A DNA stretch of 64,000 bases from an uncultured Verrucomicrobiae bacterium (GTDB lineage: Bacteria > Verrucomicrobiota > Verrucomicrobiia > Chthoniobacterales > UBA10450). The notes beneath the pieces are model-generated. The model saw only the letters and a list, made by a program, of their open reading frames with translations. It had not been told where the DNA came from and searched no databases. The first letter of the stretch is position 1, and every line of letters begins with the position of its first letter. Positions 43,283-57,452 of the stretch are shown one piece after another. The position numbers and the translations under genes were made by a program. The stretch is from positions 1 through 64,000 of the forward strand of contig CAWIBO010000002.1 in the NCBI GenBank assembly GCA_963834385.1. The letters are read 5' to 3'.

Positions 43283-45286
43283 TCAGTGACCGTTGCTCTG
43301 CAGGGGCAGAACCACGGTAACCCGCGTGCCGCGCGGGTTGGAGTCGATGTCAACCCGGCCGTTGTGGTCGAAGACAGTCCGTTTCACGATCGGCAGGCCG
43401 AGGCCCATGCCGCGGGCCTTGGTGGTGCAGAAGGGTGAGAAGACCTTTTCCTTCATGTCCGGTGCGATCCCGCGACCATTATCCTGCACGGTCACGGCCA
43501 CGCCGCTGGTCTCATCGCCTTCGCGGATTGGTTTGGCGGCCAGGGTGACCTGCGGTTTCTGCTGCCCGGTGGTGGCCTCGGCCGCGTTGGTCACAAGGTG
43601 GGCAAAGGCCTCGGTCAGGGCGGTTTCATCGCCCATGACGGAGGGGAGATTCTGCGGCAGCGACGTTTCAATGGGCATGCCGTTGCCGGCAAGACGCTGG
43701 CGGGCGAGGTCAACCGCCTTGCGTACGGCCGCGCCAAGGTCCACCGGCTTGATGATCAGCTCGGGCGGGTGGGCGAAGTTGTTGATCTGGGTGATGATCT
43801 TGTCGAGCCGGTCGATCTCCTGCACCACGATCTGGTTGAAATCCTTGCGGAAATCGGCGTCGTCGAACCGCTCGGGCAGGAGCTGGGCGAAGGTCTTGAT
43901 CGCGACGAGCGGGTTGCGGATTTCGTGCGACATGCTGGCCGCGAGATCAGTCCAGAAAGTGGCGCGGTCGAGCAGGTCCTGTTTTTGCCGGAGGCTCTCC
44001 TCCGCGGTGAGATCATGGATGACCGCGACGGCGCCGAGCGGGGTGCGCTGGTCCGAGAGTTTGCGGGTCTCGGCCTGGAGGGATTTCTGGGAATTGCGCT
44101 CGACCCACTGGCGTGGGGGCAGGGTGGACTTGCCATCGAGGGTATCGCGGAGGAACCCGGCCAAAAACGTCCCGAGTGCTTCGACCGGACGATTCAGAAC
44201 GTCGTTGGGGGACAATCCGAGCATTTGCTCCGCGGTCGGGTTAAACCAGCGGACCACGCCGTCCTCGTCGGTGGCGACGATGCCGGGTGGGATCGACTTG
44301 AGCAGCGTTTCGGCGAGCGTTTTCTGGAGGGTGATTTCCTCGTAGAGCAGGGCGTTCTCGAGAACGGTGGAAACGTGCTCGGCCAGGATGGTGAGGCCCT
44401 CGAGGTCGTTGTAATCGAACGGCTGGCCGGTGACGCGATGGCCGAAAAAGAGCCAGCCGATGATGCGGCCCCGGGCGTAAAGGGGGACGATGACCTCGGC
44501 GCCGAAGGTGTCGAGGGCGCGTCGCTGCAGAGCGCGCTGGGAGGGATCGACCGCGTGGGCGAGGTTGGCGCGGCAGATCAGGTGGGCATGGAGCTCGAAC
44601 CAGCGAACGAGCGGGTCGCGCTCGCCGAACTCGATCTCGTAGGTCTCCGGCAGGCAGCGAAGTCCCGCCCGGAGGCGATAGCGGTCGCCCTGACGAATGC
44701 GCGAGAAGATGCCGACCCGCGTGACCGTGGCGGCGTCCGCCACGCTCTCGACCACGCTGGCGAGGAGCGCGTCGACATTGTCGAACCGACGGAAAACGCG
44801 CGGGAAGCGCATGATGGGAAGAGAAGGGCTGCTGAACCGGTCGGGCAACCGCTCGAGGGGGCGGGCAGGCACGGGCACAGGCGCGAGGGTCGATTGCTCG
44901 CGCAGATCGCGATTCTCCTGTTTGACCCGGAGGAAATCAAAAGCGCGACCGACCAGGGCCTGGAACCGGCGGCGGTCGAGCTGGAGATCTTCCACCGCGT
45001 AGATGCCGCTCTGTTCGGCCTCGCGCAGCGGATCGGAGCGGGGCGTGCCGAGCGCCGTGATGAGCACATCGGGCCACTCCTGCTGGACCTGGTCGAGCAG
45101 GTCGCGCGAATCCTTTGCCCGCAGGTCGAGGAGGAGCAGGGCCGGGGTGGTCTGTTGCAGCACGCTGTCCAGGCGGTCGGCGTCGGCCACGTGGCGGATC
45201 TCGGCCACGGAACGCAGGAAAGCCTTCACCCGGCGGGCGAGATCGGCATCCTGAGTATAGAGAACGACCGCGGGAGTGGGGATCAT
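43283..45286 (-). CDS. Cytoplasmic histidine kinase: degenerate REC, GAF, PAS, HisKA, HATPase
   Basis: SMSHEIRNPL, LVTNAAEA, DNGRGI, FSPFCTTK, GMGLGL; ATGA overlap with the upstream kinase. Confidence 0.9.
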   Translation of the reverse strand: MIPTPAVVLYTQDADLARRVKAFLRSVAEIRHVADADRLDSVLQQTTPALLLLDLRAKDSRDLLDQVQQEWPDVLITALGTPRSDPLREAEQSGIYAVEDLQLDRRRFQALVGRAFDFLRVKQENRDLREQSTLAPVPVPARPLERLPDRFSSPSLPIMRFPRVFRRFDNVDALLASVVESVADAATVTRVGIFSRIRQGDRYRLRAGLRCLPETYEIEFGERDPLVRWFELHAHLICRANLAHAVDPSQRALQRRALDTFGAEVIVPLYARGRIIGWLFFGHRVTGQPFDYNDLEGLTILAEHVSTVLENALLYEEITLQKTLAETLLKSIPPGIVATDEDGVVRWFNPTAEQMLGLSPNDVLNRPVEALGTFLAGFLRDTLDGKSTLPPRQWVERNSQKSLQAETRKLSDQRTPLGAVAVIHDLTAEESLRQKQDLLDRATFWTDLAASMSHEIRNPLVAIKTFAQLLPERFDDADFRKDFNQIVVQEIDRLDKIITQINNFAHPPELIIKPVDLGAAVRKAVDLARQRLAGNGMPIETSLPQNLPSVMGDETALTEAFAHLVTNAAEATTGQQKPQVTLAAKPIREGDETSGVAVTVQDNGRGIAPDMKEKVFSPFCTTKARGMGLGLPIVKRTVFDHNGRVDIDSNPRGTRVTVVLPLQSNGH

Positions 45287-47811
45287 GCCGCGGCTACTTC
45301 GCTCTCAAAACGCACCAGCGGAAGAAGAATATGAAAAGCGGTGCCTTTTTTCACCTCGCTCTCGACCTCGATCTGGCCGCCGTGTTCCTGGATGATCCCG
45401 TGCACCACCGAGAGGCCGAGGCCGGTCCCGTAGTCCTTGGTCGTGAAGAACGGGTCAAAAACCTGTCCGATGTCCTCGGGGCGGATCCCCTCGCCGCTGT
45501 CGCGGATGGTGACGCGCAGGATTTCCTGGGTGCTGCCGTTCGTTCGGGAAAGGGCGGAGACGACATGGTCATCGCGGGTGATGCGCGTGCTCACGGCGAG
45601 TTCGCCGCCTGTGCCCATAGCGTCCATGGCGTTGATGAAGAAATTTAGAAAGACCTGCTCCAGCTGGTCAGCGTCGGCGCGGATTGTATCAACTTCCGCC
45701 TGCCATGCCCGCGTTAATTTAATATCTTTTTGGTAGAGGCGATGGCCGACGAGCTGGAGCGATTTCTCGAGCGTCTCGTGGACGTGCATCGGTTTGAGGA
45801 GGGGCTTGGCCGGGCGGGCGAAGCGGAGGAGTTGGTTGACCAGGCTGTCAATGCGGTCGATTTCGTGCCCGATCAGGTTGGAAAAGGTCTCGCGGAAATC
45901 GGAATCCTGGTAACGCTCCGGGAGAAGCTGGGCAAAGGTCTTGATCGAGACGAGGGGGTTCTTGATCTCGTGGGCCATCCCGGCGGAGAGCGTGCCAAGG
46001 CTGGCCAGACGGTCGCTCCGCCGGATCTGCAACTCGAGCTGCTTGAGCGCGGAAATATCGGTCAGCACCAGCAAGGCGCCCAGGGTGGCGCCATCCTCGT
46101 CGCGGAAGATGGAGCTGCTGGCCCGGACAATGCGCGGCCGGCTGCCATCGCCGACGCGCATCTCCGGGTCCTCCTTGCGTTCGCCCGTCTGGAGGGTGGC
46201 GAGGAGCATGCGGCAGAGGTCGGCCGGCAGCCGGTCGATTTCCTGGCCGAGAATGTCAGCGGCGTTCAGCCCGGTGATGAGCTCGGCTTCGTGGTTGAAA
46301 ACGGTGACCTGCTGCTGGGCATCGGCGGCAATGACGCCGGTGGTAAGGTTTTGCAGCAGCGTTTCATTATAAATCTTGGCGTTCTGGACCTCGGTGAAAA
46401 GCTCCGCGTTCTCGATCGCGACGGCGAGCTGTCCGCACAGGACCTGGAGGGCGTTTTGCTCCGGGATCCCGTACATTCGCCCGGAGAGCCGCGGGCCGAG
46501 AACCATGACGCCGGCCAGGTGTTCGCGTGAGGCGATCGGCATGGCGATGGCGACCTGGAGCCCCTCCATCAGGGCGGCCACGCGCCGCAGCTGCGGGGTG
46601 AGACGAATACGACGCAGTTCCTCGAGCACGAGCGGTTCCCGGGTCTCTTCCAGTTGCTGAACGAGCGGGCTCTCCCGGTCGAACTCGAGCAGATCGCGCT
46701 GCAGCTCGTTTTCCGGGAGGGGATACCGCTGGATGAGGCCACCGCGTGCCGGGAGGAGAATGACGACGCGATCTGTCTTCATGGCCTCGGTGACGGTGGC
46801 GCCGAAGCGTTCCATCAGTTCGCGGAGAGTGCTGACCGAGTTGAGGATGGTGGCGGCCTTGCTCACGGTGGCGCCGAAGTCGAGTTGCCGGCTGCCGACG
46901 AAGAGACGGTCTGCCAGGCGCTGGGAAATGCCGCGGGCCGGGGCCATGGCAAAGGCAACGACGAGAGCGGCGACGATGTGGGCCATTTGTGTCCCCCCCG
47001 ATCCGATGAAAGGGACGAGGGCGGTGGTGACCAGCCACCAGACCGCGCCGTAGAGAGTGAGGAGATAAAGGGTGAGCAGGGCGTAGGAGATCACCCGGCG
47101 AAAGAAAACGCCCACTTCCATGATGCGCCGGGTGGTGATGCCGTAGGCGATGATGAGGCTGAACAGAACGATGCGGAAAGGAGCGAGCCAGTTCAGGAGC
47201 GACTGGTGCACAAAAGGCCGGATGAAAAGGGCCAGGAGAGTCAGGCCGAGGATGACGGCCGTGCCCATGAGGATGAAAGAAAGCTCCGTGCGCTCGCGGC
47301 CGCGGGCGTTCTTGATGTCCCGAACGTAAAGCACCAGGAGCGCGAGCCCGGCGGCGGCGAAATAGATGCTGTAGAGGTAGACGCCGTTTCCGTAGACCGG
47401 AACAGGGGTCAGGTTGGGCGCCCCCTGGGCCTGCGAGAAGACCGTGTCGGCCATGAAGAAAGGAGTCTGGCAGAGGAGAACAATGCCGAGGGCGGCGCCC
47501 AGCCAGTAGCGGGTGCCGAAGAGAAGCTCCCGCCAGCTCTGGTTCGGTCTCTTGATCGAGATCCGGAGGAGATTGAAGGAATAGAGAAGGAAGGCGCCGG
47601 CGGCAGAGGCCTGCCTGATGTAGAACTCGGCAGTGGCGAGATTCTCGGTGATCGAGATCAGGTAAAGGCTGCCCAGCCAGACGGCGATGGTGCTGGAGAG
47701 GACGAGGAAGGTCTGATTGGATTTGCGGCCGGGGCTGGCCTGGAAAACCGCGAAGCCCAGCGCGATCTGGATGATCTGGGCGACAAGGATGGGCGTGGTC
47801 GCAGCGTTCAT
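45283..47811 (-). CDS. Multi-TM sensor histidine kinase (7TM-like, GAF, PAS, HisKA, HATPase; PrsK-like architecture)
   Basis: About 9 hydrophobic segments, AVAIENAELF, MAHEIKNPL, INAMDAM, DSGEGI, FDPFFTTK, GTGLGL. Confidence 0.92.
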   Translation of the reverse strand: MNAATTPILVAQIIQIALGFAVFQASPGRKSNQTFLVLSSTIAVWLGSLYLISITENLATAEFYIRQASAAGAFLLYSFNLLRISIKRPNQSWRELLFGTRYWLGAALGIVLLCQTPFFMADTVFSQAQGAPNLTPVPVYGNGVYLYSIYFAAAGLALLVLYVRDIKNARGRERTELSFILMGTAVILGLTLLALFIRPFVHQSLLNWLAPFRIVLFSLIIAYGITTRRIMEVGVFFRRVISYALLTLYLLTLYGAVWWLVTTALVPFIGSGGTQMAHIVAALVVAFAMAPARGISQRLADRLFVGSRQLDFGATVSKAATILNSVSTLRELMERFGATVTEAMKTDRVVILLPARGGLIQRYPLPENELQRDLLEFDRESPLVQQLEETREPLVLEELRRIRLTPQLRRVAALMEGLQVAIAMPIASREHLAGVMVLGPRLSGRMYGIPEQNALQVLCGQLAVAIENAELFTEVQNAKIYNETLLQNLTTGVIAADAQQQVTVFNHEAELITGLNAADILGQEIDRLPADLCRMLLATLQTGERKEDPEMRVGDGSRPRIVRASSSIFRDEDGATLGALLVLTDISALKQLELQIRRSDRLASLGTLSAGMAHEIKNPLVSIKTFAQLLPERYQDSDFRETFSNLIGHEIDRIDSLVNQLLRFARPAKPLLKPMHVHETLEKSLQLVGHRLYQKDIKLTRAWQAEVDTIRADADQLEQVFLNFFINAMDAMGTGGELAVSTRITRDDHVVSALSRTNGSTQEILRVTIRDSGEGIRPEDIGQVFDPFFTTKDYGTGLGLSVVHGIIQEHGGQIEVESEVKKGTAFHILLPLVRFESEVAAA

Positions 47812-47872: not shown

Positions 47873-49114
47873 TCAGGCCGCCGGGCGAAGAATAATCATG
47901 GTCGCGGCGCTGCCCCCGATGCCGCGCACATTGACCAGGGCGCGGTCGATCCGGGTCCTGCGGGGCCGGTTGGCCACAAAGTTCAAATCGCACTTGGGAT
48001 CGGGGTTTTCGTAGTTGGCGGTGGGCGGGATGAGCTGGTCGCGCATGCTCAAGGCGCAGGCGATCAGCTGGAACGGGCCGCCGGCGGCCATGGCATTGCC
48101 GGTCACACCTTTGATTGAATTGACCGGGATATCGTAGGCGCGCGGCCCGAAAACCTCCTTGATGCTGGCGACTTCCGTTTCATCCAGCACCGGATGGCCC
48201 GGTCCGTAGGCGGAAATATAGTCGATCTGGTTGATATCGAGCCCGCCGTTGGCGAGCGCCAGCTTCATGGAATCGGCCAGGCCCGAGCCGGGCCGGCCGG
48301 CATCGCGGTCGCGTTGTTTTCCGTAACAGCAGATCTCAAAATGGATTTGCGCGCCGCGCGCTTCCGCCCGCGCCAGGTTTTCCAGGATCATGACGCCGGC
48401 GCCTTCCGCCAGGACGCCCGAGTCGCGTTCCAGGTCAAAGGGCCGGCTGGCTTTCTCCGGTTCGTCGTTGCGGCAGGAGCTCAGCCCGCTGGCAATGAAC
48501 ATCGACAGGGCCAGGGGCGTGATCGGGGTGTCCGTTCCCCCCGCGATGGCCACCTCTGCCTCGCCGGAGCGGATCATTTCCGCGGCCGTGGCAACGGCAT
48601 CAAGGCCCGATGGGCAGGCGGAGGAAATCGTGGCGGCATCGGCGCTCAGGCCGATCCGGTCGGCGATCATGTTGGCCGCCGCCTGCGGGATCATATGGGC
48701 CGCCGTGCTGGGGGCAGCCCGGTTGGGGCCCTTTTGCTCGACGTCCTCGAAGGCTTTTTCCAGCACATCAATGGCGCTGGAACTCACCCCGATCACCACC
48801 GGCGTCGGGCTGGGAAAATCGAGGTTCTTGGGATCGTAGCCGGCGTTCTCCAAGGCCATCATGGTGGCGGCAAAAGCGAACTGCGTATGCCGGGCCATGC
48901 GTTTCGGTTTCAGCTCGGGCTCGATGAAGTCCTGCGGATCGAAATTTTTCACCTCGCCCGCGATCCGGCTTTTGAACCCGGTGGTGTCAAAGTGGGTGAT
49001 GGGCGCGATGCCGCTGCGGCCGCTGAGAAGGGAATCCCAGAAAGCCTTCAAACCGATGCCATTTGGGGCGACCACGCCCATCCCGGTCACGACGACACGA
49101 TTTTTTTTTCTCAT
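47873..49114 (-). CDS. FabF-fold beta-ketoacyl synthase-like protein with non-canonical active site (Cys kept; His to Tyr; His to Asn)
   Basis: RVVVTGMGVV, SSACPSG, SRPFD, EGAG, IPPTAN; SAYGPGH and KGVTGNAM at the two His motifs. Confidence 0.88.
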   Translation of the reverse strand: MRKKNRVVVTGMGVVAPNGIGLKAFWDSLLSGRSGIAPITHFDTTGFKSRIAGEVKNFDPQDFIEPELKPKRMARHTQFAFAATMMALENAGYDPKNLDFPSPTPVVIGVSSSAIDVLEKAFEDVEQKGPNRAAPSTAAHMIPQAAANMIADRIGLSADAATISSACPSGLDAVATAAEMIRSGEAEVAIAGGTDTPITPLALSMFIASGLSSCRNDEPEKASRPFDLERDSGVLAEGAGVMILENLARAEARGAQIHFEICCYGKQRDRDAGRPGSGLADSMKLALANGGLDINQIDYISAYGPGHPVLDETEVASIKEVFGPRAYDIPVNSIKGVTGNAMAAGGPFQLIACALSMRDQLIPPTANYENPDPKCDLNFVANRPRRTRIDRALVNVRGIGGSAATMIILRPAA

Positions 49115-49180
49115 GGAGTTATCGGTCCCGTTTCTTCTCACAACTGAATGCCCGGGGAGGAAGGTTTTTTAATGGTTATG

Positions 49181-49376: not shown

Positions 49377-50531
49377 ATGATCGCTTCTCCTGATCTGCCG
49401 CAGGTCCTTGTCATCGACGATGAAATAGGCCCCCGCGAGAGCCTGCGCATGCTTCTCAAGCCCAGTTACCGCGTCCACACCGCCGAATGCGTCGCCGACG
49501 GTGTCCGTCTTCTCCAGGAAAAAAAACCTGATGCCGTCATCACCGATATCCGCATGCCCGGCGTGAGCGGCATCGACGGCCTGCGCCAGATCCGCGAGAT
49601 CGACCCGCATGTCTCGGTCATCATGCTGACCGGGTTCGGCGCCCTGGAAACGGCGCAGGAGGCGCTTCGGCTCGGGGCCAACGATTATATCAGCAAGCCG
49701 TTCGACGCCCGCGAAATGCGCGAGGTCATCAGCCGCAACGTCGAGCGCACCCGGGTGCACCGCGCGGGGGAGAACGCCGCCCTGGAAATCCGCGGATTAA
49801 ACGATCGCCTCCTCAAAGAGCTGGCCCAGAAAGAACGCCTGGCCTCGCTCGGCCAGGCCTCGGCCGAGTTCGTCCACGATATCAGCAACCCGCTCACCAT
49901 CGTCTGGGGTTACGTCCAACTGCTTGCGCGCAAACTCGAGCAGCAGGAGAAAACCGAGGGCGAATCGGCCGCGTCCGCCCGTGAATTAAATATCATCGAA
50001 CAGAATGTCCGTCTCTGCCGCGACCTCCTGGTCATGTGGCAGAGCTACGGCAGCGAGGAAGCGGCGCCGCACAAGCCCATCTCGGTTTCCTCCATTGTTC
50101 GCGACGTCATCAAGGCCATGGAGGGCATGGCGGCGCAGCACAAAGTGACGCTGACCGGGCAGGTCTGCGAGGAACCGGGCAGCCTCCTGGGCGACGCCGT
50201 CCAGGTCCAGCGCGCCATCCAGAACGTGGTCACCAACGCCGTGCAGGCGGCGGCGGAAAGGGATAATGGCGGCACGGTCTCCGTCTCCTGCCAGCAACGG
50301 GAATTTTACACCGACGTGCGCGTGGAAGATTCCGGCACGGGGATGACCCCGGAACAGATCATCAAAATTTTCGATCCTTACTTCACGACCAAGCAGGGCA
50401 AGAGCGGCACCGGCCTCGGCCTCTACATCACGAAGAAGGTGGTCGATGATCATAACGGTTCGATCAAGGTCGACAGCACGCCGGGTGCGGGCAGCGTTTT
50501 TACCATCCGCCTTCCGCTGCTGAACGCCTGA
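49377..50531 (+). CDS. Hybrid response regulator / histidine kinase (REC, HisKA, HATPase)
   Basis: VIDDE, TDIRMPG, YISKPF; FVHDISNPL, NAVQA, DSGTG, FDPYFTTK, GTGLGL. Confidence 0.93.
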   Translation: MIASPDLPQVLVIDDEIGPRESLRMLLKPSYRVHTAECVADGVRLLQEKKPDAVITDIRMPGVSGIDGLRQIREIDPHVSVIMLTGFGALETAQEALRLGANDYISKPFDAREMREVISRNVERTRVHRAGENAALEIRGLNDRLLKELAQKERLASLGQASAEFVHDISNPLTIVWGYVQLLARKLEQQEKTEGESAASARELNIIEQNVRLCRDLLVMWQSYGSEEAAPHKPISVSSIVRDVIKAMEGMAAQHKVTLTGQVCEEPGSLLGDAVQVQRAIQNVVTNAVQAAAERDNGGTVSVSCQQREFYTDVRVEDSGTGMTPEQIIKIFDPYFTTKQGKSGTGLGLYITKKVVDDHNGSIKVDSTPGAGSVFTIRLPLLNA

Positions 50532-50577: not shown

Positions 50578-53007
50578 GTGCCCGCCGGTTATTGTGTTGC
50601 ACCTGTTTTCGCCCTTCGCACGACCGGTGTCCCGTTTCGGCACGTAGCCGGCCTGGCCACACCGCGGGCCACGGAGATCGCGCGCGCGCTTCTGACCGCC
50701 CGGGCCGAGCAAGCCCGGCTGCGCAAGGAACTGAACGATCTTTTCGGTCGGCAGGAGTTCCGCATGTCGGGCCCGCCCTTCCAGTTGGCGGTGGCCGTCA
50801 TGCGGGGTCGCGCCTTGACCGTGGCTCCCGGCGTGGTGCTGCCTCCGGCCGTGCCGGCACTGGCGGAGATTTCCGCCCGGATTGCGGAACTGGAGAAACA
50901 ATTCGAGCCGGTTTTGCGTGCGGAGGTGGCGCAGGCGCGCATGGCCCTGCGCCGCTCCTGCCGCGACGTTCTCCCCGATTACCTGATTTTCGGCGCGGGC
51001 GATATTCGGCGCGAAGTGGCCGAACTGGGGATCGAGGAAGTCGGCGGCGAGCTTCCCGCCCGCAATTCCAAGGAACGCGCGCGCGAGCGGCACCTCCTTC
51101 TCTATCTGCAGCGTCTCTGCGGCAAGAACGACACTTTCAGCCGGTTCGGTCCGTCAACCTGGGGTCGGCTGGATGAAACGGTCACAGGCGTCCGCTTTGA
51201 ACCGAGTGCCGGCATCGATGAACGTCATCTCCTTCTTGAACGCTGGACGGCCCATCTCCTGGCACGCGCCCTGAACGCTGATCCCGCCGCGCGCCGCCAG
51301 TTTTGTCCGCGGCTCCACCCGAACGGCCGGATCGAGGGGAACGAGTTCGTCTTCATCGAGGACAACCGGCGCGTGCCGCTGTCGCCTGCGCTGCGCGAGC
51401 TGCTCGACCAGTGTGACGGGCAAACGCCGGCGCAGGGGCTGGAGGCCGGGCTGCCACAACTGGAGGAGTTGGTGGACCTCGGTGTTCTTCTTTTGGGAGC
51501 CGAGGTGCCCGCGCTGGAAGCGAACGCTTTTGGCGTGCTGGTGCAGGATATCGCCGCGTGGCCGGCCGGCGAGGTTCGCACCGGCTGGCTCGACCGGGCG
51601 GAACGGCTGGGCCGGCTGCCGGCCGAGTTTGGCGCCAGCACGGCGATTGCGCACCGCGTGACGGTGATGAACGAAGCGCGCCGGCTTCTTGGTGAACTGG
51701 GCGAAACCGAAGCGCTGGGGCAGCGGGCGCTCTACAAGGCGGCCAACCCAATTCTCGAGGAGTGCGCCCGGTTCTCCCAATTCCATCTTGGCGTGGAGGC
51801 GGCGGCCGCGCTCACCCGCGAGGGCCGGCCCTGGCTTGACCTTTGGCGCGACACCTATGCCTTTGTCGCGAGCCGCCTTGCCCAGGCCCTGCGCCATCTC
51901 CACCAGTCGGCGCCCCGGCACGACGGTGCGGTGGCCTGGCCGGCGTTCCTGGCCCATTGCGCGCGGCAGAACATGCCGCTCACCGGTCATGGCCTGGTGG
52001 CCCCGGGGCACGTGGCGTTCCAGGAGGTAAAAGGGGCATTCCGCAGGGCCCTGGAAGAGCGTGCGGGAGAGGCCGAGGTGGAACTCACGGCGGAAGATTG
52101 CGCGATTGTGCGCCGCAGTTTTTCGTTCCCCGCCTTCGACGAATACACTTATCCGTCGGCAGACCTGCAGATTGCGGCGCGCTCCTTCGAGGCCATGGCG
52201 CGGGGCGAATACCAATGGATCATCGCGGAACTGCATCCGGCGGTGGCCCTGCTGCACCACGGGCTTTTTTGGAGCTGCCCGGAGAAGGAGGTGCTGGCCG
52301 GGGCGCTGCGGGCCACCACCTTTGGGCAACCGAGTCCGCATTACGGATTTCACGCGGCCGATTTTACGGCGCACACGACGGTGCACCTGATGGAAGCGCT
52401 GGGAGAACAGAGCGTGTTTGTCGCGCCGCAGCGCGGGCGGCCGGAGTGGAACCCGATCCCGCCCGCGGAGGTGGAGGTGGTGGTGCAGGAGGAGAGCGGC
52501 GACGTGGTCCTGCGCCAGCGCGGCACGGGGCGTCATCTTGGTTCGCTGGCCCGGAACTGGTTGATTCCGCTTGGTTTTCATCCGTTCCATTTCGGGCGGA
52601 CGCCGCACATGCCGCGTTTGCGCTGCGGGAACGTGATCGTGCAGCGCCGTTCCTGGACGGTGAAGCTCGAGGAGCTGGCCCCGGGCAATCATGCCGGCAT
52701 CTCGCCCGCGCTCGTCTCAGCGGTGGAGTCGCTCCGGGCGGAGAAAGGCTGGCCCCGGCACATTTACATTCGGCCGACCGAGCAGGCGCTCCGGCGGAGT
52801 GGAGCGGAGGGGCGCGACAAGGACACCAAGCCGGTCTACGTGGATCTCGAGAGCTACCTTTTCCTGGAAATCTTCCATCGTTGGCTGACGAAGGCGGGCG
52901 AACTGGAAGTGACCGAGATGCTGCCGGACCCCGAACATCTGTGCTGGCAGGAACCGGGTGGAAATCACACCTTTGAGATCCGCACCCTTATTGTGCCGGA
53001 AACATGA
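50578..53007 (+). CDS. Stand-alone lantibiotic-dehydratase N-terminal domain protein (small LanB / PEARL-like peptide aminoacyl-tRNA ligase)
   Basis: YLQRLCGKNDTFSRFGP, SADLQIAA, IAELHP, HMPRL...QRRSW, KPVYVDLES, TEMLPDPEH...FEIR; ends without an elimination domain. Confidence 0.8.
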   Translation: MPAGYCVAPVFALRTTGVPFRHVAGLATPRATEIARALLTARAEQARLRKELNDLFGRQEFRMSGPPFQLAVAVMRGRALTVAPGVVLPPAVPALAEISARIAELEKQFEPVLRAEVAQARMALRRSCRDVLPDYLIFGAGDIRREVAELGIEEVGGELPARNSKERARERHLLLYLQRLCGKNDTFSRFGPSTWGRLDETVTGVRFEPSAGIDERHLLLERWTAHLLARALNADPAARRQFCPRLHPNGRIEGNEFVFIEDNRRVPLSPALRELLDQCDGQTPAQGLEAGLPQLEELVDLGVLLLGAEVPALEANAFGVLVQDIAAWPAGEVRTGWLDRAERLGRLPAEFGASTAIAHRVTVMNEARRLLGELGETEALGQRALYKAANPILEECARFSQFHLGVEAAAALTREGRPWLDLWRDTYAFVASRLAQALRHLHQSAPRHDGAVAWPAFLAHCARQNMPLTGHGLVAPGHVAFQEVKGAFRRALEERAGEAEVELTAEDCAIVRRSFSFPAFDEYTYPSADLQIAARSFEAMARGEYQWIIAELHPAVALLHHGLFWSCPEKEVLAGALRATTFGQPSPHYGFHAADFTAHTTVHLMEALGEQSVFVAPQRGRPEWNPIPPAEVEVVVQEESGDVVLRQRGTGRHLGSLARNWLIPLGFHPFHFGRTPHMPRLRCGNVIVQRRSWTVKLEELAPGNHAGISPALVSAVESLRAEKGWPRHIYIRPTEQALRRSGAEGRDKDTKPVYVDLESYLFLEIFHRWLTKAGELEVTEMLPDPEHLCWQEPGGNHTFEIRTLIVPET

Positions 53008-53786
53008 AGATCATCGCCATCGCCAACCAGAAAGGGGGAGTGGGTAAAACCACCACCGCGGTCAACCTGAGCGTGGCGCTCGGCGAAGTGGGCCAGCGCG
53101 TTCTCCTGATCGATCTCGATCCGCAGGGCAACGCCACCAGTTCCTTTGGTCTGCAGGAAATCGAGGGCGAAAGCCTTTACGACCCGATCCTTGGCCAGGC
53201 TCGCCTGGCGGACAAGATCGTGCCCACGCGGCATGGGAACGTTTTCATGATCACGGCCGACCTCGACCTCGCGGGAGCGGAGATCGAGATCGCCCGGATG
53301 CCGGATCACCTCACGCGGCTGCGGGAAGCGATGGAACCGCTGCGCCGGGATGCCACCTTCGACTTCGTCTTTCTCGATTGTCCGCCCTCGCTCGGCATTC
53401 TGATGACGAACGCGCTCGCGGCCGCGGACGAGCTGCTCACCCCGATCCAGTGCGAATACTTCGCGCTCGAGGGCCTGGTGAAAATTGTGCGCGTGGTGGA
53501 ACAGGTGCGCGATTCCGGGGCGAATCCCGGGGTGCGGATCAATGGGATCGTCATGACCATGTTCGACAGCCGGACCAATCTGAGCGGGCAGGTGGTGGAC
53601 GAAGTGCGCCAGCATTTTGGCGAACAAATCTACAGCACCATCATTCCCCGCAGCGTCCGCCTGAGTGAGGCGCCCAGTTTCGGCAAGTCGGTGCTCGAGC
53701 ATGATCCGACCGGCCCGGGTGCGCGGGCTTACCGGGCGCTGGCGGCGGAGTTCTGGGAGCGCCAGAAAGGCGGGAAGCGTCGTTAG
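53004..53786 (+). CDS. parA: ParA/Soj-family ATPase
   Basis: NQKGGVGKTTT, DLDPQGNAT, DCPPSLG, PIQCEYFALEGL, IPRSVRLSEAPSFG. Confidence 0.93.
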   Translation: MKIIAIANQKGGVGKTTTAVNLSVALGEVGQRVLLIDLDPQGNATSSFGLQEIEGESLYDPILGQARLADKIVPTRHGNVFMITADLDLAGAEIEIARMPDHLTRLREAMEPLRRDATFDFVFLDCPPSLGILMTNALAAADELLTPIQCEYFALEGLVKIVRVVEQVRDSGANPGVRINGIVMTMFDSRTNLSGQVVDEVRQHFGEQIYSTIIPRSVRLSEAPSFGKSVLEHDPTGPGARAYRALAAEFWERQKGGKRR

Positions 53787-54104: not shown

Positions 54105-54217
54105 GTTGAGTTTTCGCGGCGATTTGATGGGCGGGATTTGCCGAGAGCGGGAACCCGTGCTACGTTCAGTTGAACGTAAAAGGCGTCAGGGATTTTTCGC
54201 CGCGCGTATCAATCACG

Positions 54218-55472
54218 GTGGATTTACAGGGTAAACTCGCAATTCTGGCTGACGCGGCGAAGTACGACGCTTCCTGCGCGAGCAGCGGCACGACCAAACG
54301 CAACGCGCGTGTCTCGGGCGGCCTCGGCTCCACGGTCGGGACCGGGATTTGTCACAGCTACACCCCGGACGGGCGCTGCGTTTCCCTCCTCAAGATTCTT
54401 CTGACCAATTACTGCGTCTACGACTGCCTTTATTGCATCAACCGCGTTTCCAGCGATGTGCCACGGGCCCGTTTTACTCCCGACGAGGTGATCAAGCTGA
54501 CCCTCGATTTTTACCGCCGCAATTATATCGAGGGGCTTTTCCTCAGCTCGGGGATCATTCGCAATCCGGATTACACCATGGAGCAGGTGATCGCCGTGGC
54601 CCGTCGGCTCCGATTGGAACACCAGTTTCGCGGCTATATCCATTTAAAGACGATTCCCGAGGCTTCGCCCGCGCTGATCGAGGAAGCGGGCCGGTGGGCG
54701 GACCGAATCAGCATCAACATTGAGCTGCCGACCCCGGCCGATGTGGCGAGGCTCGCGCCGGAGAAAAGCTTCGAGAACACCCGCAAAGCCATGGGCGGGA
54801 TCCGGGATCGAATTGCCGAGGCGAAAGCGGCACGAAAAGAGACGGCGAAAGCGCCGGCTTTTGCCCCCGCTGGCCAAAGCACGCAAATGATCGTGGGCGC
54901 GACGGAAGCGAGCGACGCCACCATCCTGGAGCAGGCTTCCGATCTCTACGCGAAGCATAAGCTGCGTCGGGTTTATTACTCGGCTTTCAGTCCCATCCCG
55001 AGCGCGTCGAGCAAGCTGCCGTTGATCGCACCACCGTTGGTGCGGGAACACCGGCTTTACCAGGCCGACTGGCTGGTCCGTTTTTATGGGTTCAAACCGG
55101 CGGAGCTGACCACTCCGGAGGCGCAGAAATCTTGATCTGAACATTGATCCAAAACTGGCCTGGGCCCTGCGCCACCAGGCGGAGTTTCCCGTCGACCTGA
55201 ACCGCGCCGCGCGGGAATCGCTCCTGCGTGTGCCGGGGTTGGGCACCAAATCCGTTGAACGGATTTTGCGTCTGCGGCGCTGGCACAAGCTCCGGCTGGA
55301 TGACCTGACTCGTCTGCGTTTGCCGGTGAAGAAGGTTCTGCCTTTTGTCATCACGGCCGATTACCGGCCGGTCACACTCGAAGGGACGGAGCGGGACAGT
55401 TTTCTTTCTCCGCGGCCTGCCCAGATGGATTTGTTCCCGCGCGAAACCTCGGTGGTGACCGGTCAATTATGA
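54218..55472 (+). CDS. Putative DNA modification/repair radical SAM protein with helix-hairpin-helix (TIGR03916-like); one apparent frameshift near 55128
   Basis: AAKYDASCASSG, GICHSYTPDGRC, CVYDCLYC, REHRLYQADWL; continues as LDLNIDPKLAWAL...LLRVPGLG after removing one A. Confidence 0.88.
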
Positions 55473-56900
55473 TCCGGCCCATGGAGCATCTGCTTTTTGC
55501 GCCAGGCTTCGCCGGCTGGCAGCAGGCGGCGCGGGCGGCCCTTTCCCGCGAATTGATCCCGGAGGAGGTGGCCTGGCAGGAACTTGGGGCGGACCAGCCT
55601 GACCTCGCGCTCTTCGAAACGGAGGTCGTCGCAGCGGCGCCCGCGACCACGGCTTTCCGCGTTCCCCGCCGTTTCGTCGAGCTGGCCCGCCTGGTGGCTT
55701 TGCATCGCGAGGAGGCGCGCTGGGGCCTGCTTTACCGGCTCCTTTGGCGAATCACGCATGGTGAACCGCGCCTGCTCGATATTTTCGTGGATCCGGACGT
55801 GAGCCGCGCTTCCGCGCTGCAGAAGGCGGTCCGGCACGACATTCACAAGATGCGGGCGTTTGTCCGGTTTCGCGAGGTGAAGATGGCCGACGGGCCATGG
55901 TTCGTGGCCTGGTTCGAGCCGGAACACCACATCGTCGAACACAACGCGCAGTTCTTTGTCGATCGTTTCGCCTCGATGCGCTGGTCGATCCTGACCCCGG
56001 AACGATGCGCGCACTGGGATGGAAAGGAGTTGTCGATCACCGCCGGGGTGAACAGGAGCGAGGCGCCGCAGGAGGACGAGATCGAGCCGCTCTGGCTCAC
56101 CTATTACGCAAACATCTTTAACCCGGCCCGGGTGAAAGTGCAGGCCATGCAGGCGGAGATGCCGCGGAAGTACTGGCGGAATCTTCCGGAAAGCGAATTG
56201 ATTCCCGCTCTTTTACGCGAGGCCCCGCGAAGAATGGATGAGATGGCGAGGAAAAGCGCGGCCCAAACGGCGGAGGCGGAAGAGTTCTGGTCGCCGGCGC
56301 AGCCGCCCGCGACCTCGAGCTTGAAGAAGATGGAAGAGGCGGCGGCGGCCTGTCGCGCCTGTCACCTTTACAAGCGCGCCACGCAAACGGTCTTCGGCGA
56401 AGGCCCGAAGGAAGCCACCTTTATGCTCCTCGGCGAGCAACCGGGCGACCAGGAGGATTTGGCCGGCAAGCCGTTTGTCGGGCCGGCGGGGAAACTGCTC
56501 GACCGCGCCCTGGTGGAGGCGGGGATCGACCGGGACGAAGTTTACGTCACCAACACGGTCAAACATTTCAAGTGGGAACCGCGCGGCAAGCGGCGTCTGC
56601 ACCAGAAACCGAACTCGCGCGACATTGCCGCCTGTCGTCCGTGGTTCGAGGCGGAGCTGGCCCTGGTGAAACCGAAGCTCCTCATCTGCCTCGGCTCGAC
56701 CGCGGCCCAGGCCATCCTCGGGTCCGGTTTCCGGGTCACGCGTGAACGCGGCAAAGTGCTCGAGTCGCCCCTGGCCCCGCGTGTTCTGGCGACGGTCGCA
56801 TCCCTCCTCGCTCCTGCGCCAGCCTGACGAGGAAGCCCGGGCGCAGGCTTACGCTCTTTTCCTGGATGATCTGCGCGCAGCGGTTGCTGCCGTGGCCTGA
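55469..56900 (+). CDS. DUF4130 fused to UdgX-family uracil-DNA binding protein; one apparent frameshift near 56797
   Basis: HKMRAFVRF, FNPARVK, MPRKYW; then CRAC, GEQPGDQED, KHFKW, KRRLHQKP; HPSSLLR restored by removing one base; stop at 56900. Confidence 0.87.
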
Positions 56901-56907
56901 GGCCGCC

Positions 56908-57354
56908 CTAACCGGCTGGAGAAGGGCTGGCCTTCGCCTCTTTACGCGCCTTCTTGGCCGCTTTTTCCGCCTCGGTCCGCGGTCCAAGCTTCACCGTTTT
57001 GGCCTCGAGGGAGCCGTCCTCCTTCTTCCAGTAGGACCCCCGAACCTCCATCTCCGCGACCACATCCTTCAGCGTCGCCGGTTCGCCTCCCTTGGTGATG
57101 GTGGTGCGCTCGGAAATCTTGAAAACGCGCGGCTTCTCCTTGCCGGCCACGGTGAAGGTTCGGGCTTCGGCGTCAACCGTCCCGATGGTGCCGCGGTAGG
57201 GGCTGGCCCGTTCGATCTTGGGCGCGGGCGTCTCGGTGGGCGCGGCGGAGATTTCGGGGGTGGGCGAGGGGGAACCCTGGCCGCCCGCGAAAGGGGTGGA
57301 GAGGCAGAAAAACGCGGCTGCGAAAAGGCCCGCGCACAGGCACGAATGTTTCAT
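56908..57354 (-). CDS. Small secreted protein with an OB-like domain (DUF5666-like)
   Basis: Signal peptide, SPSPTP linker, GTIGTVDAEARTFTV...ATLKDV...V.GSY. Confidence 0.6.
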   Translation of the reverse strand: MKHSCLCAGLFAAAFFCLSTPFAGGQGSPSPTPEISAAPTETPAPKIERASPYRGTIGTVDAEARTFTVAGKEKPRVFKISERTTITKGGEPATLKDVVAEMEVRGSYWKKEDGSLEAKTVKLGPRTEAEKAAKKARKEAKASPSPAG

Positions 57355-57379
57355 GGCATGGATTCCGGGTTGAAGGTTT

Positions 57380-57452
57380 TGGAGGTAAGGGGATTCGAAC
57401 CCCTGGCCTCGTCATTGCGAACGACGCGCTCTACCAACTGAGCTATACCCCC
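57380..57452 (-). tRNA. tRNA-Ala (anticodon CGC), CCA not encoded
   Basis: GGGGGTA/TACCTCC acceptor stem with G3:U70, anticodon arm CGTCG-TT-CGC-AA-TGACG, GGTTCGAATCC. Confidence 0.96.

Follow-up and report, generated by a model that had tools for sequence, protein, structure and literature searches.

The window analysed here is a 64,000-nucleotide stretch of DNA from an uncultured Verrucomicrobiae bacterium (positions 1-64,000 of contig CAWIBO010000002.1; all coordinates are given in window numbering). It carries a gene for an 809-aa LanB-like protein at 50578..53007 on the forward strand. The product of this gene is probably an enzyme of the peptide aminoacyl-tRNA ligase (PEARL) type that is near-core in its family, stands outside any biosynthetic gene cluster and belongs to an operon with parA and a hybrid histidine kinase carrying a receiver domain (REC-HK). 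The evidence comes from the fold of the protein, the lack of a detected elimination domain, residue conservation, phylogenetic placement, distribution and synteny. To our knowledge, all PEARLs characterised so far are encoded in biosynthetic gene clusters, and their substrate is a scaffold peptide or the product of a nonribosomal peptide synthetase (NRPS).

The gene begins with a GTG start codon, 46 bp after the end of the REC-HK gene (50531). Its stop codon TGA (53005-53007) overlaps the ATG of parA (53004-53006), giving ATGA at 53004-53007. The translation (P0001) contains the LanB motifs QRRSW (residues 689-693), KPVYVD (751-756) and TEMLP (779-783). It also contains the motif YLQRLCGKNDTFSRFGP at residues 176-192 (51103..51153, forward strand), referred to below as the KNDT motif. 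The public gene call for the protein is 747 aa long (P0004). The 809-aa form is nevertheless considered right, because the N-terminus YRVAPIFLIRMAGVPF is kept in all 20 homologues that were read. A first-pass annotation, made from the sequence alone, had described a stand-alone small LanB of the PEARL type with these glutamylation-domain motifs, this gap and this overlap, and with no LanC, elimination enzyme, YcaO protein, peptidase, exporter or precursor beside it. Every motif is present in the translation, the coordinates were confirmed, and Pfam annotation of the neighbouring genes shows none of the listed partners and no cyclase.

Fold and predicted active site

In its AlphaFold2 model, which was built on 21 homologues (mean pLDDT 77.5, pTM 0.75), the LanB-like protein has the LanB glutamylation-domain fold. 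A Foldseek search with the model returned TbtB (6ec7, E 3.6e-20, TM 0.66), GodF (2.9e-19), MibB (7.5e-16), NisB (3.7e-13) and MadB (about 1e-13), and the first match outside the LanB proteins appeared only at E 0.26. At the sequence level, the domain PF04738 (Lant_dehydr_N) is matched in two stretches with 50 bits and an E value of 1.8e-13 (cut-off 28), and Pfam gives no match to the elimination domain PF14028 in the protein. The first-pass annotation had anticipated this outcome of a domain scan. No NCBIfam model matches the LanB-like protein or 32 of its relatives. These relatives, which reach down to 18% identity, form the alignment A2. A search of PDB sequences with the single LanB-like sequence gave nothing relevant; the A2 profile retrieved TbtB with an E value of 6.4e-37. 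The same profile aligns the KNDT motif to YVARAAVKTSPYSTF ('VKTSPYSTF') of TbtB, the counterpart of the classical LanB motif.

A winged-helix domain resembling PqqD, that is, a recognition element for ribosomally synthesised peptides that are modified after translation (RiPPs; RiPP recognition element, RRE), is predicted at residues about 245-310 (51310..51507, forward strand). This candidate RRE-like domain is indicated by weak matches of A2 profile positions 266-326 to PqqD chains (E 0.012-0.19), in a region where the model shows three strands (250-267) and helices (270-300). PF05402 is matched in one of the 32 A2 members. The domain is kept in 18 of 20 homologues and deleted in two of about 680 aa (L054 and L055); in the family alignment A1 it falls into columns 245-331. 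Another region of A1 that is present in some sequences and absent in others, columns 47-105 (residues about 45-105 of the window protein), is a helical N-terminal insert missing from 9 of 21 sequences.

Published residue assignments, taken here from excerpts of two papers, allow PEARLs and split LanBs to be compared. According to PMC11117183, the residues R743, F783 and E851 of TbtB are common to PEARLs and split LanBs. Asp542 and Arg803 of TglB are described there as PEARL-only, the split LanBs having Tyr and Leu, respectively, and the ATP site of TglB is numbered D542/E564 and E801/R803. For BhaB-C-Trp (BhaB7), PMC11962472 assigns D558, E575, E813 and R815 to ATP and Mg, R715 and F755 to the adenine, Y205, R208 and R429 to the CCA end of the tRNA, and R34 to the vicinity of the substrate carboxylate.

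In the LanB-like protein the residues R179, D529, R690, E800 and R802 are invariant in A1, in A2 and in A4, an alignment of 21 sequences that includes paralogues from multi-PEARL loci and NRPS-linked enzymes. Y176, K183, N184 and T186 show no variation in A4 and a conservation of at least 90% in A2; for H553 the pattern is the reverse, with no variation in A2 and at least 90% in A4. R14 and E551 reach at least 90% in either alignment, and the position of Y730 holds Tyr or Phe in 21 of 21 A4 rows. D529 and the E551-L-H553 segment (52162..52236, forward strand; alignments A2 and A4) contain the predicted acidic residues of the Mg/ATP site and a conserved His. The spacing of 22 between D529 and E551 is that of the excerpted TglB numbers (542 to 564). 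R690 and Y730 (52645..52767, forward strand) form a predicted adenine-stacking Arg/aromatic pair, as judged from the alignment to TbtB and from the spacing of 40 residues, equal to that reported for R715/F755 of BhaB. By a hand count they align to R746 and F786 of the TbtB chain, which equal the published R743 and F783 if the chain has three extra residues. The E-x-R motif E800-I-R802, encoded by gag atc cgc (52975..52983, forward strand), is seen in A1, A2 and A4, and Y176-x-x-R179 has the spacing of the reported tRNA CCA contacts Y205/R208 of BhaB-C-Trp. A paralogue from a multi-PEARL cluster of Brevibacillus has residues 557/575/714/754/812/814 in the same columns, compared with 558/575/715/755/813/815 given for BhaB-C-Trp; the conserved His column (H553) is residue 577 of this paralogue.

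Judged from these alignments, the PEARL-specific ATP-site residues (D529, E800-x-R802) are kept in the LanB-like protein, and so are the predicted contacts to the tRNA 3′ end (R690, Y730, Y176, R179). The protein terminates 7 residues past the E-x-R motif and has no fused elimination domain. PF14028 has no match anywhere in the source genome (2.9 Mb in 5 contigs, 89.6% complete); the same search matched 4 of 5 actinomycete genomes used as a positive control. Among 121 genomes of the family, PF14028 was found in two, inside separate full-length LanB-sized frames of 1072-1126 aa. No match to YcaO or to an NRPS condensation domain was obtained in the source genome, nor to LanC, for which the positive control of the search gave no signal. 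The assignment to the stand-alone small LanBs of the PEARL type, which the first-pass annotation had tied to retained ATP- and tRNA-binding residues and to the lack of a split partner, is borne out by the fold, the invariant residues and the elimination-domain searches. The LanB-like protein is not a lanthipeptide or thiopeptide dehydratase.

By analogy with the characterised enzymes, we propose that the protein is an amide ligase with the LanB glutamylation fold, derived from ATP-grasp enzymes, which would use ATP to phosphorylate a carboxylate. The acyl phosphate would then be attacked by the amino group of an aminoacyl-tRNA, and one amino acid would be added. A ligase of this type has probably been recruited into a phosphorelay operon and become nearly core in one family.

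Distribution, relatives and genomic neighbourhood

The LanB-like gene is inherited vertically and is near-core in one family of soil Verrucomicrobiota. Searches with the protein gave over 1000 close relatives, of which the best 120 are 51-58% identical to it and mostly about 800 aa long; where the sources name them, they come from metagenome-assembled genomes of Chthoniobacterales or Verrucomicrobiota. In a phylum-wide sample the gene was found in 4 of 301 genomes, namely the window genome, the two further members of its GTDB family in the sample and, as a weak match, one genome elsewhere. Within the family it is present in 168 of 201 genomes, in 97 of the 114 high-quality ones and in 31 of 36 genera. 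This tally includes six genomes flagged as unpublished, all of them positive; without them the count is 162 of 195. The gene is mostly single-copy, and most of the listed matches have no internal stop. Copies with in-frame stops occur in G335 (C6:413983-416382, four stops) and in G429 (C8:45892-48225, one TGA), and these are possibly pseudogenes or assembly errors. In the genus g158 the gene was found in none of 22 genomes.

A profile search of 1.84 billion representatives yielded 3060 relatives at E<=1e-3, and among the matches listed the near-full-length ones are about 790-880 aa long. PF04738 was detected in 30 of 32 sampled relatives and PF14028 in none of them. The pattern N[DE]T[IA][GS][FY]FGP, derived from the KNDT motif, occurs in at least 633 stretches in species genomes, 629 of which are relatives, spanning Actinomycetota, Acidobacteriota, Chloroflexota, Proteobacteria, Cyanobacteria and Bacillota. 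The link between this motif and PEARLs, which the first-pass annotation had drawn, stands: the motif marks a wide clade that includes enzymes of multi-PEARL and NRPS clusters.

Thirteen of 75 loci of relatives were hand-picked and annotated. Six carry NRPS or polyketide synthase (PKS) genes, three combine LanB-like paralogues (multi-PEARL) with TPR and DAO oxidase genes, two have a paralogue together with PALP or TldD, and two show nothing telling. The multi-PEARL-like loci belong to Brevibacillus aydinogluensis (L071), Rhizobium leguminosarum Tri-43 (L072) and Pseudovibrio sp. SPO723 (L073). All three contain a DAO-type oxidase, and a TPR protein is encoded in L071 and L073. Four LanB-like paralogues are present in L071, three in L073 and two candidate ORFs in L072, where an 897-aa candidate ORF has no Pfam match. 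By gene content alone, these loci resemble the bha and amm pyrroloiminoquinone PEARL clusters. No small ORF ending in 'PLALA' was found within the flanks of five relatives' loci.

A clade of metagenomic enzymes, designated tier 2, was not found in a first metagenome scan with the protein P0167 alone, and a second scan with the alignment A6 gave 22 loci. The four loci with enough flanking sequence encode ketoacyl synthase (KAS), KAS III, FabA, short-chain dehydrogenase/reductase, thioesterase, adenylation, carrier and condensation domains and a phosphopantetheinyl transferase. In an IQ-TREE phylogeny of 42 hand-picked rows, midpoint-rooted and without a LanB outgroup, the family forms a clade with an SH-aLRT of 100 on a long branch (1.19). 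Tier 2 is its sister group (100), the NRPS/PKS-linked group joins these two (99), and the multi-PEARL group lies on the opposite side of the tree. For 10 distant relatives the names of their clusters were uninformative, the ESM Atlas returned 'lantibiotic dehydratase' clusters only, and literature searches turned up no description of this Verrucomicrobia LanB-like or PEARL clade. The LanB-like protein is best described as a PEARL-type ligase of a branch linked to thiotemplate and fatty-acid-type clusters.

The neighbourhood was compared in 20 loci from 20 genomes, which were picked non-randomly for long contigs and for spread over the genera. Two sensor histidine kinases and a KAS, followed by the divergent genes for REC-HK, the LanB-like protein and ParA, are found in this order in 20 of 20 loci, with the outer kinase HK1 present in 19. 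The neighbourhood conservation on which the first-pass annotation had staked its proposal is thus observed. The REC-HK, the first gene of the operon (49377..50531, forward strand), encodes a protein of 384 aa with PF00072, HisKA and HATPase_c domains, whose invariant residues across 21 orthologues include D57, H167 and many others. In all 20 loci the REC-HK gene is found upstream of the LanB-like gene, at a median intergenic gap of 95 bp. Orthologues occur in 154 of 201 family genomes, and both REC-HK and the LanB-like gene are absent from the four genera g158 (0/22 for each), g162, g167 and g175. The gene downstream in 20 of 20 loci encodes a ParA/Soj-type ATPase (53004..53786, forward strand; PF13614/PF01656). 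In 13 loci its start shares 4 bp with the end of the LanB-like gene, and in 15 of 20 the gap between the two does not exceed 4 bp. The LanB-like gene is probably co-transcribed with REC-HK and parA; we infer that the three are co-expressed as an operon and that the LanB-like gene is under phosphorelay control. A promoter and terminator scan gave 0 promoters and 6 terminator-like sites, compared with 5.0 expected. Among public sequencing runs, no RNA run was listed with the stretch, and two soil-metagenome DNA runs hold shares of 0.19 and 0.10 of it.

On the reverse strand, Pfam identifies two GAF-PAS sensor histidine kinases at 43283-45286 and 45283-47811. HK2 is conserved in all 20 loci, and HK1 is absent only from L047. 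The KAS (47873..49141, reverse strand; PF00109/PF02801), which is FabF-like and divergent from the operon, is conserved in place in 20 of 20 loci, some of the KAS genes being at 33-71% identity. It is regarded as an accessory paralogue because it scores 371 bits on the fabF model, under the cut-off of 494, and a canonical fabF (642 bits) is located elsewhere, at G000:C2:612355. An adjacent pair of ketoacyl-synthase-like genes, encoding 412 aa and 374 aa, lies at G000:C1:153439-155321 (L170:10383-12739); the 374-aa member has an N-terminal KS domain only, and the pair resembles a KS/chain-length-factor arrangement.

In the family f64 the module of two kinases, KAS and REC-HK occurs at 35-48% identity and includes neither the LanB-like gene nor ParA (L065, L066). 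ParA is encoded apart from the module in f64 and in genus g158, where it stands alone. The LanB-like gene therefore joined a pre-existing module of kinases and KAS in the ancestor from which most of the family descends.

Downstream of ParA the gene order varies. In the window, 54170-56827 encodes a radical-SAM protein (TIGR03916) and a DUF4130/TIGR03915-UdgX-type uracil-DNA-binding (UDG) fusion, known as a 'putative DNA modification/repair' pair; this pair is next to ParA in 3 of 20 other loci. It is followed by a 191-aa ORF without a family match (56866-57441, forward strand), which overlaps a tRNA-Ala(CGC) gene (57380-57452, reverse strand) and is probably not a gene over its whole length. 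The only ParB (ParB_N, HTH and C domains) is encoded on another contig (G000:C1:149242-149520; L170:5724-6689), so that parA and parB are unlinked. It is flanked by a 340-aa gene without a known family and by an M28 peptidase, and nothing related lies nearby.

Substrate and alternative explanations

No conserved intergenic ORF of precursor size was found across 21 loci. The window DNA has 65% G+C and is rich in small ORFs; the inspected small-ORF families common to at least 17 of 21 loci, each judged by three example members, all lie in alternative frames of big conserved genes. The source genome contains six KAS-like matches and three stand-alone carrier proteins. The orphan status claimed by the first-pass annotation is upheld, no precursor, NRPS, LanC or elimination partner having been found. 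That annotation had further suggested a PEARL used outside natural-product synthesis, for example for tRNA-dependent C-terminal tagging of proteins. The first part agrees with the lack of a cluster or partner at the locus; the tagging of proteins is unsupported. The C-termini of ParA orthologues vary in length and sequence, and ParA is therefore an unlikely substrate.

A small non-ribosomal carboxylate is at least as well indicated as a protein or ribosomal peptide, because the nearest relatives lie in clusters with KAS, thioesterase, adenylation and carrier genes. Three points lead us to lean slightly towards such a compound: the clusters in which the sister clade is found, the accessory KAS next to the operon, and the RRE, which is deleted in 2 of 20 homologues and which an excerpt of PMC11962472 reports as dispensable in BhaB7 and TglB. 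The substrate may thus, quite tentatively and by analogy, be a non-ribosomal or acyl carboxylate; a ribosomal peptide or a protein C-terminus seems rather unlikely.

Several points weigh against the proposal of a near-core PEARL-type enzyme in the kinase-parA operon. The PF04738 match is weak at 50 bits, and the catalytic residues were mapped through published numbers, spacing and homologues from look-alike clusters and not through a direct alignment with TglB, BhaB, AmmB or SnaE. In the N-terminal part, the Brevibacillus paralogue departs from the published BhaB-C-Trp numbering by about 20-23, and eight paralogues from multi-PEARL clusters show no uniform numbering offset relative to published BhaB7, with a column-wise match in the C-terminal half only. 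The pLDDT is below 50 at residues 182-193, 592-600 and 791-798, near several of the signature residues. In a PDB search with the C-terminal 90 residues the TbtB alignment ended at chain residue 840, before the E-x-R motif, and the contrast of E-x-R with E-x-L in TbtB rests on the excerpted statement in PMC11117183. The tree is a quick one, a careful search being unfinished. No substrate was found, and no condensation domain was detected in a genome of only 89.6% completeness. Identity to the window's proteins is 47-57% for the LanB-like protein and 67-79% for its neighbours, so it evolves faster than a typical core enzyme. Finally, the KAS and the kinases occur without the LanB-like gene in f64 and thus do not depend on it, and synteny inside one family may be simple inheritance.

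One competing explanation is that the enzyme extends the C-terminus of a ribosomal product, either a remote scaffold peptide or a cellular protein such as the kinase or ParA, as a tRNA-dependent tag. It is consistent with the retention of the predicted PqqD-like RRE in 18 of 20 homologues and with the lack of an NRPS condensation domain in the genome. The excerpt of PMC11962472 gives peptide C-termini as the site of action of all RiPP-type PEARLs and reports that a short tag is enough to label eGFP, MBP and lysozyme. The REC-HK has a C-terminus of fixed length, 'TIRLPLxxx', in 19 of 20 orthologues, yet this tail reaches only 3 residues past the last strand of the ATPase domain. Co-folding of the enzyme (A1) with REC-HK residues 200-384 (A5) speaks neither for nor against binding (score 0.01, mark 0.32). 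Since, moreover, the 21 loci share no precursor-sized ORF, the ParA C-termini are variable, the RRE is deleted in two of 20 homologues and dispensable in BhaB7 and TglB by the same excerpt, and the sister clade lies in thiotemplate and fatty-acid-type clusters, we consider this explanation unlikely.

The gene could instead belong to a dispersed secondary-metabolite pathway, its place between kinase and parA being an inherited gene order without functional meaning. Wherever the context of a relative could be read, its gene belongs to a biosynthetic cluster or has a paralogue next to it, the KAS-like and carrier proteins of the genome could serve such a pathway, and the fast evolution of the protein would fit it. 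However, it would be unusual for a gene of secondary metabolism to be near-core and mostly single-copy over 31 of 36 genera. The 4-bp overlap with parA in 13 of 20 loci, the four genera that lack REC-HK and the LanB-like gene alike, and a genome in which no NRPS, LanC, YcaO or elimination domain was found also make this pathway quite unlikely.

A ligase of the ATP-grasp kind that no longer uses tRNA and accepts a free amine as nucleophile, or a regulatory protein serving as a scaffold for the kinase or ParA, would agree with the proposed descent of PEARLs from ATP-grasp ligases (excerpt of PMC11117183) and with the long branch of the family (1.19). It would also agree with the glutathione synthetases and a ligase among the weak Foldseek matches (E 0.7-0.95, probability 0.07-0.13). 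The Y-x-x-R and KNDT motifs and the Arg/aromatic adenine pair, which are tied to the tRNA 3′ end, are nevertheless invariant, and the full 800-aa architecture is kept, which renders this explanation improbable. A glutamyl-tRNA-dependent glutamylase of the split-LanB type, with an unrecognised elimination partner or stable Ser/Thr glutamylation, is very improbable: among solved structures TbtB and GodF come closest, and no other PDB sequences are matched significantly, but split LanBs are nearest by default because no PEARL structure has been solved according to an excerpt of the review PMC12945691, D529 and R802 are invariant where split LanBs carry Tyr and Leu by the excerpt of PMC11117183, and the elimination domain was not found in the genome and occurs in only 2 of 121 family genomes.

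Under the favoured reading, a PEARL-type enzyme in the REC-HK/parA operon, PEARL chemistry might operate in core physiology: linked to a phosphorelay and using ATP and charged tRNA, the enzyme would aminoacylate a cellular carboxylate, either a lipid or acyl product of the KAS or a protein C-terminus. We regard this extension as doubtful though conceivable. If true, it would represent a new tRNA-dependent modification tied to signalling and perhaps, via translational coupling with parA, to the cell cycle, and tRNA-dependent, ribosome-independent amide ligation would serve ordinary cell physiology too. The clade is distinct and deeply conserved, occurs in more than 160 species-level genomes without a cluster and is wired to a two-component operon. 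With one gene, invariant catalytic residues and a natural loss in one genus, it offers a testable system and a route to a possible new class of aminoacylated metabolite or protein tag. Such genes should not be annotated as 'lantibiotic dehydratase' or counted as RiPP clusters in genome mining.

Comparison with known systems

TbtB (PDB 6EC7/6EC8) and GodF (9JHQ) are the best matches among solved structures and have the adenine Arg/aromatic pair and the C-terminal Glu in common with the LanB-like protein. Unlike the latter, they are ATP-independent and work with a separate elimination protein, as far as the excerpted literature describes them; the PEARL-specific Asp and Arg are present in the LanB-like protein, and neither a separate elimination protein nor a conserved precursor was found. 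The features of full-length LanB enzymes are also lacking, there being no fused elimination domain and no LanC match in a search without a working positive control.

BhaB7 and TglB share with the LanB-like protein an architecture of about 800 aa, consisting of the LanB N-terminal region without an elimination domain. In the LanB-like protein an RRE-like domain is predicted. The Asp, Glu-x-His, Arg/aromatic, Glu-x-Arg and Y-x-x-R residues lie in matching columns and at matching spacing, by the residue numbers of the published excerpts. The paralogues from the multi-PEARL look-alike clusters are 18-21% identical to the LanB-like protein and occupy a separate main branch of the tree. In contrast to BhaB7 and TglB, the gene has no adjoining scaffold peptide, paralogues, oxidases or peptidase; it is near-core and lies in a two-component operon. 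In the usual PEARL setting the substrate is encoded in the same biosynthetic cluster, whereas here the neighbours are kinases, a KAS, ParA and a DNA-repair pair.

SnaE from the threopeptin NRPS-PKS cluster of Stackebrandtia nassauensis is, by an excerpt of PMC11212132, an NRPS-associated, stand-alone PEARL annotated as a lantibiotic dehydratase. The likeness lies in the published description. SnaE has no precursor peptide and acts on a non-ribosomal carboxylate by the same excerpt, and the family groups with NRPS/PKS-linked relatives (SH-aLRT 99). It differs in that no condensation domain was found in the genome studied here, where kinases, a KAS and parA take the place of an assembly line.

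The enzymes of tier 2 (P0167; L148, L149, L151 and L152) differ from the LanB-like protein in being metagenomic, uncharacterised and encoded in small KAS/NRPS-type clusters. They are similar to it over the full length, with 25-27% identity in A2 and 28-30% by tblastn, and contain the motifs SYLQRLxxKNETISFFGP, PDLQ, GELHP and E-x-R. At one of these loci, a sigma-54 response regulator and a histidine kinase are encoded directly upstream.

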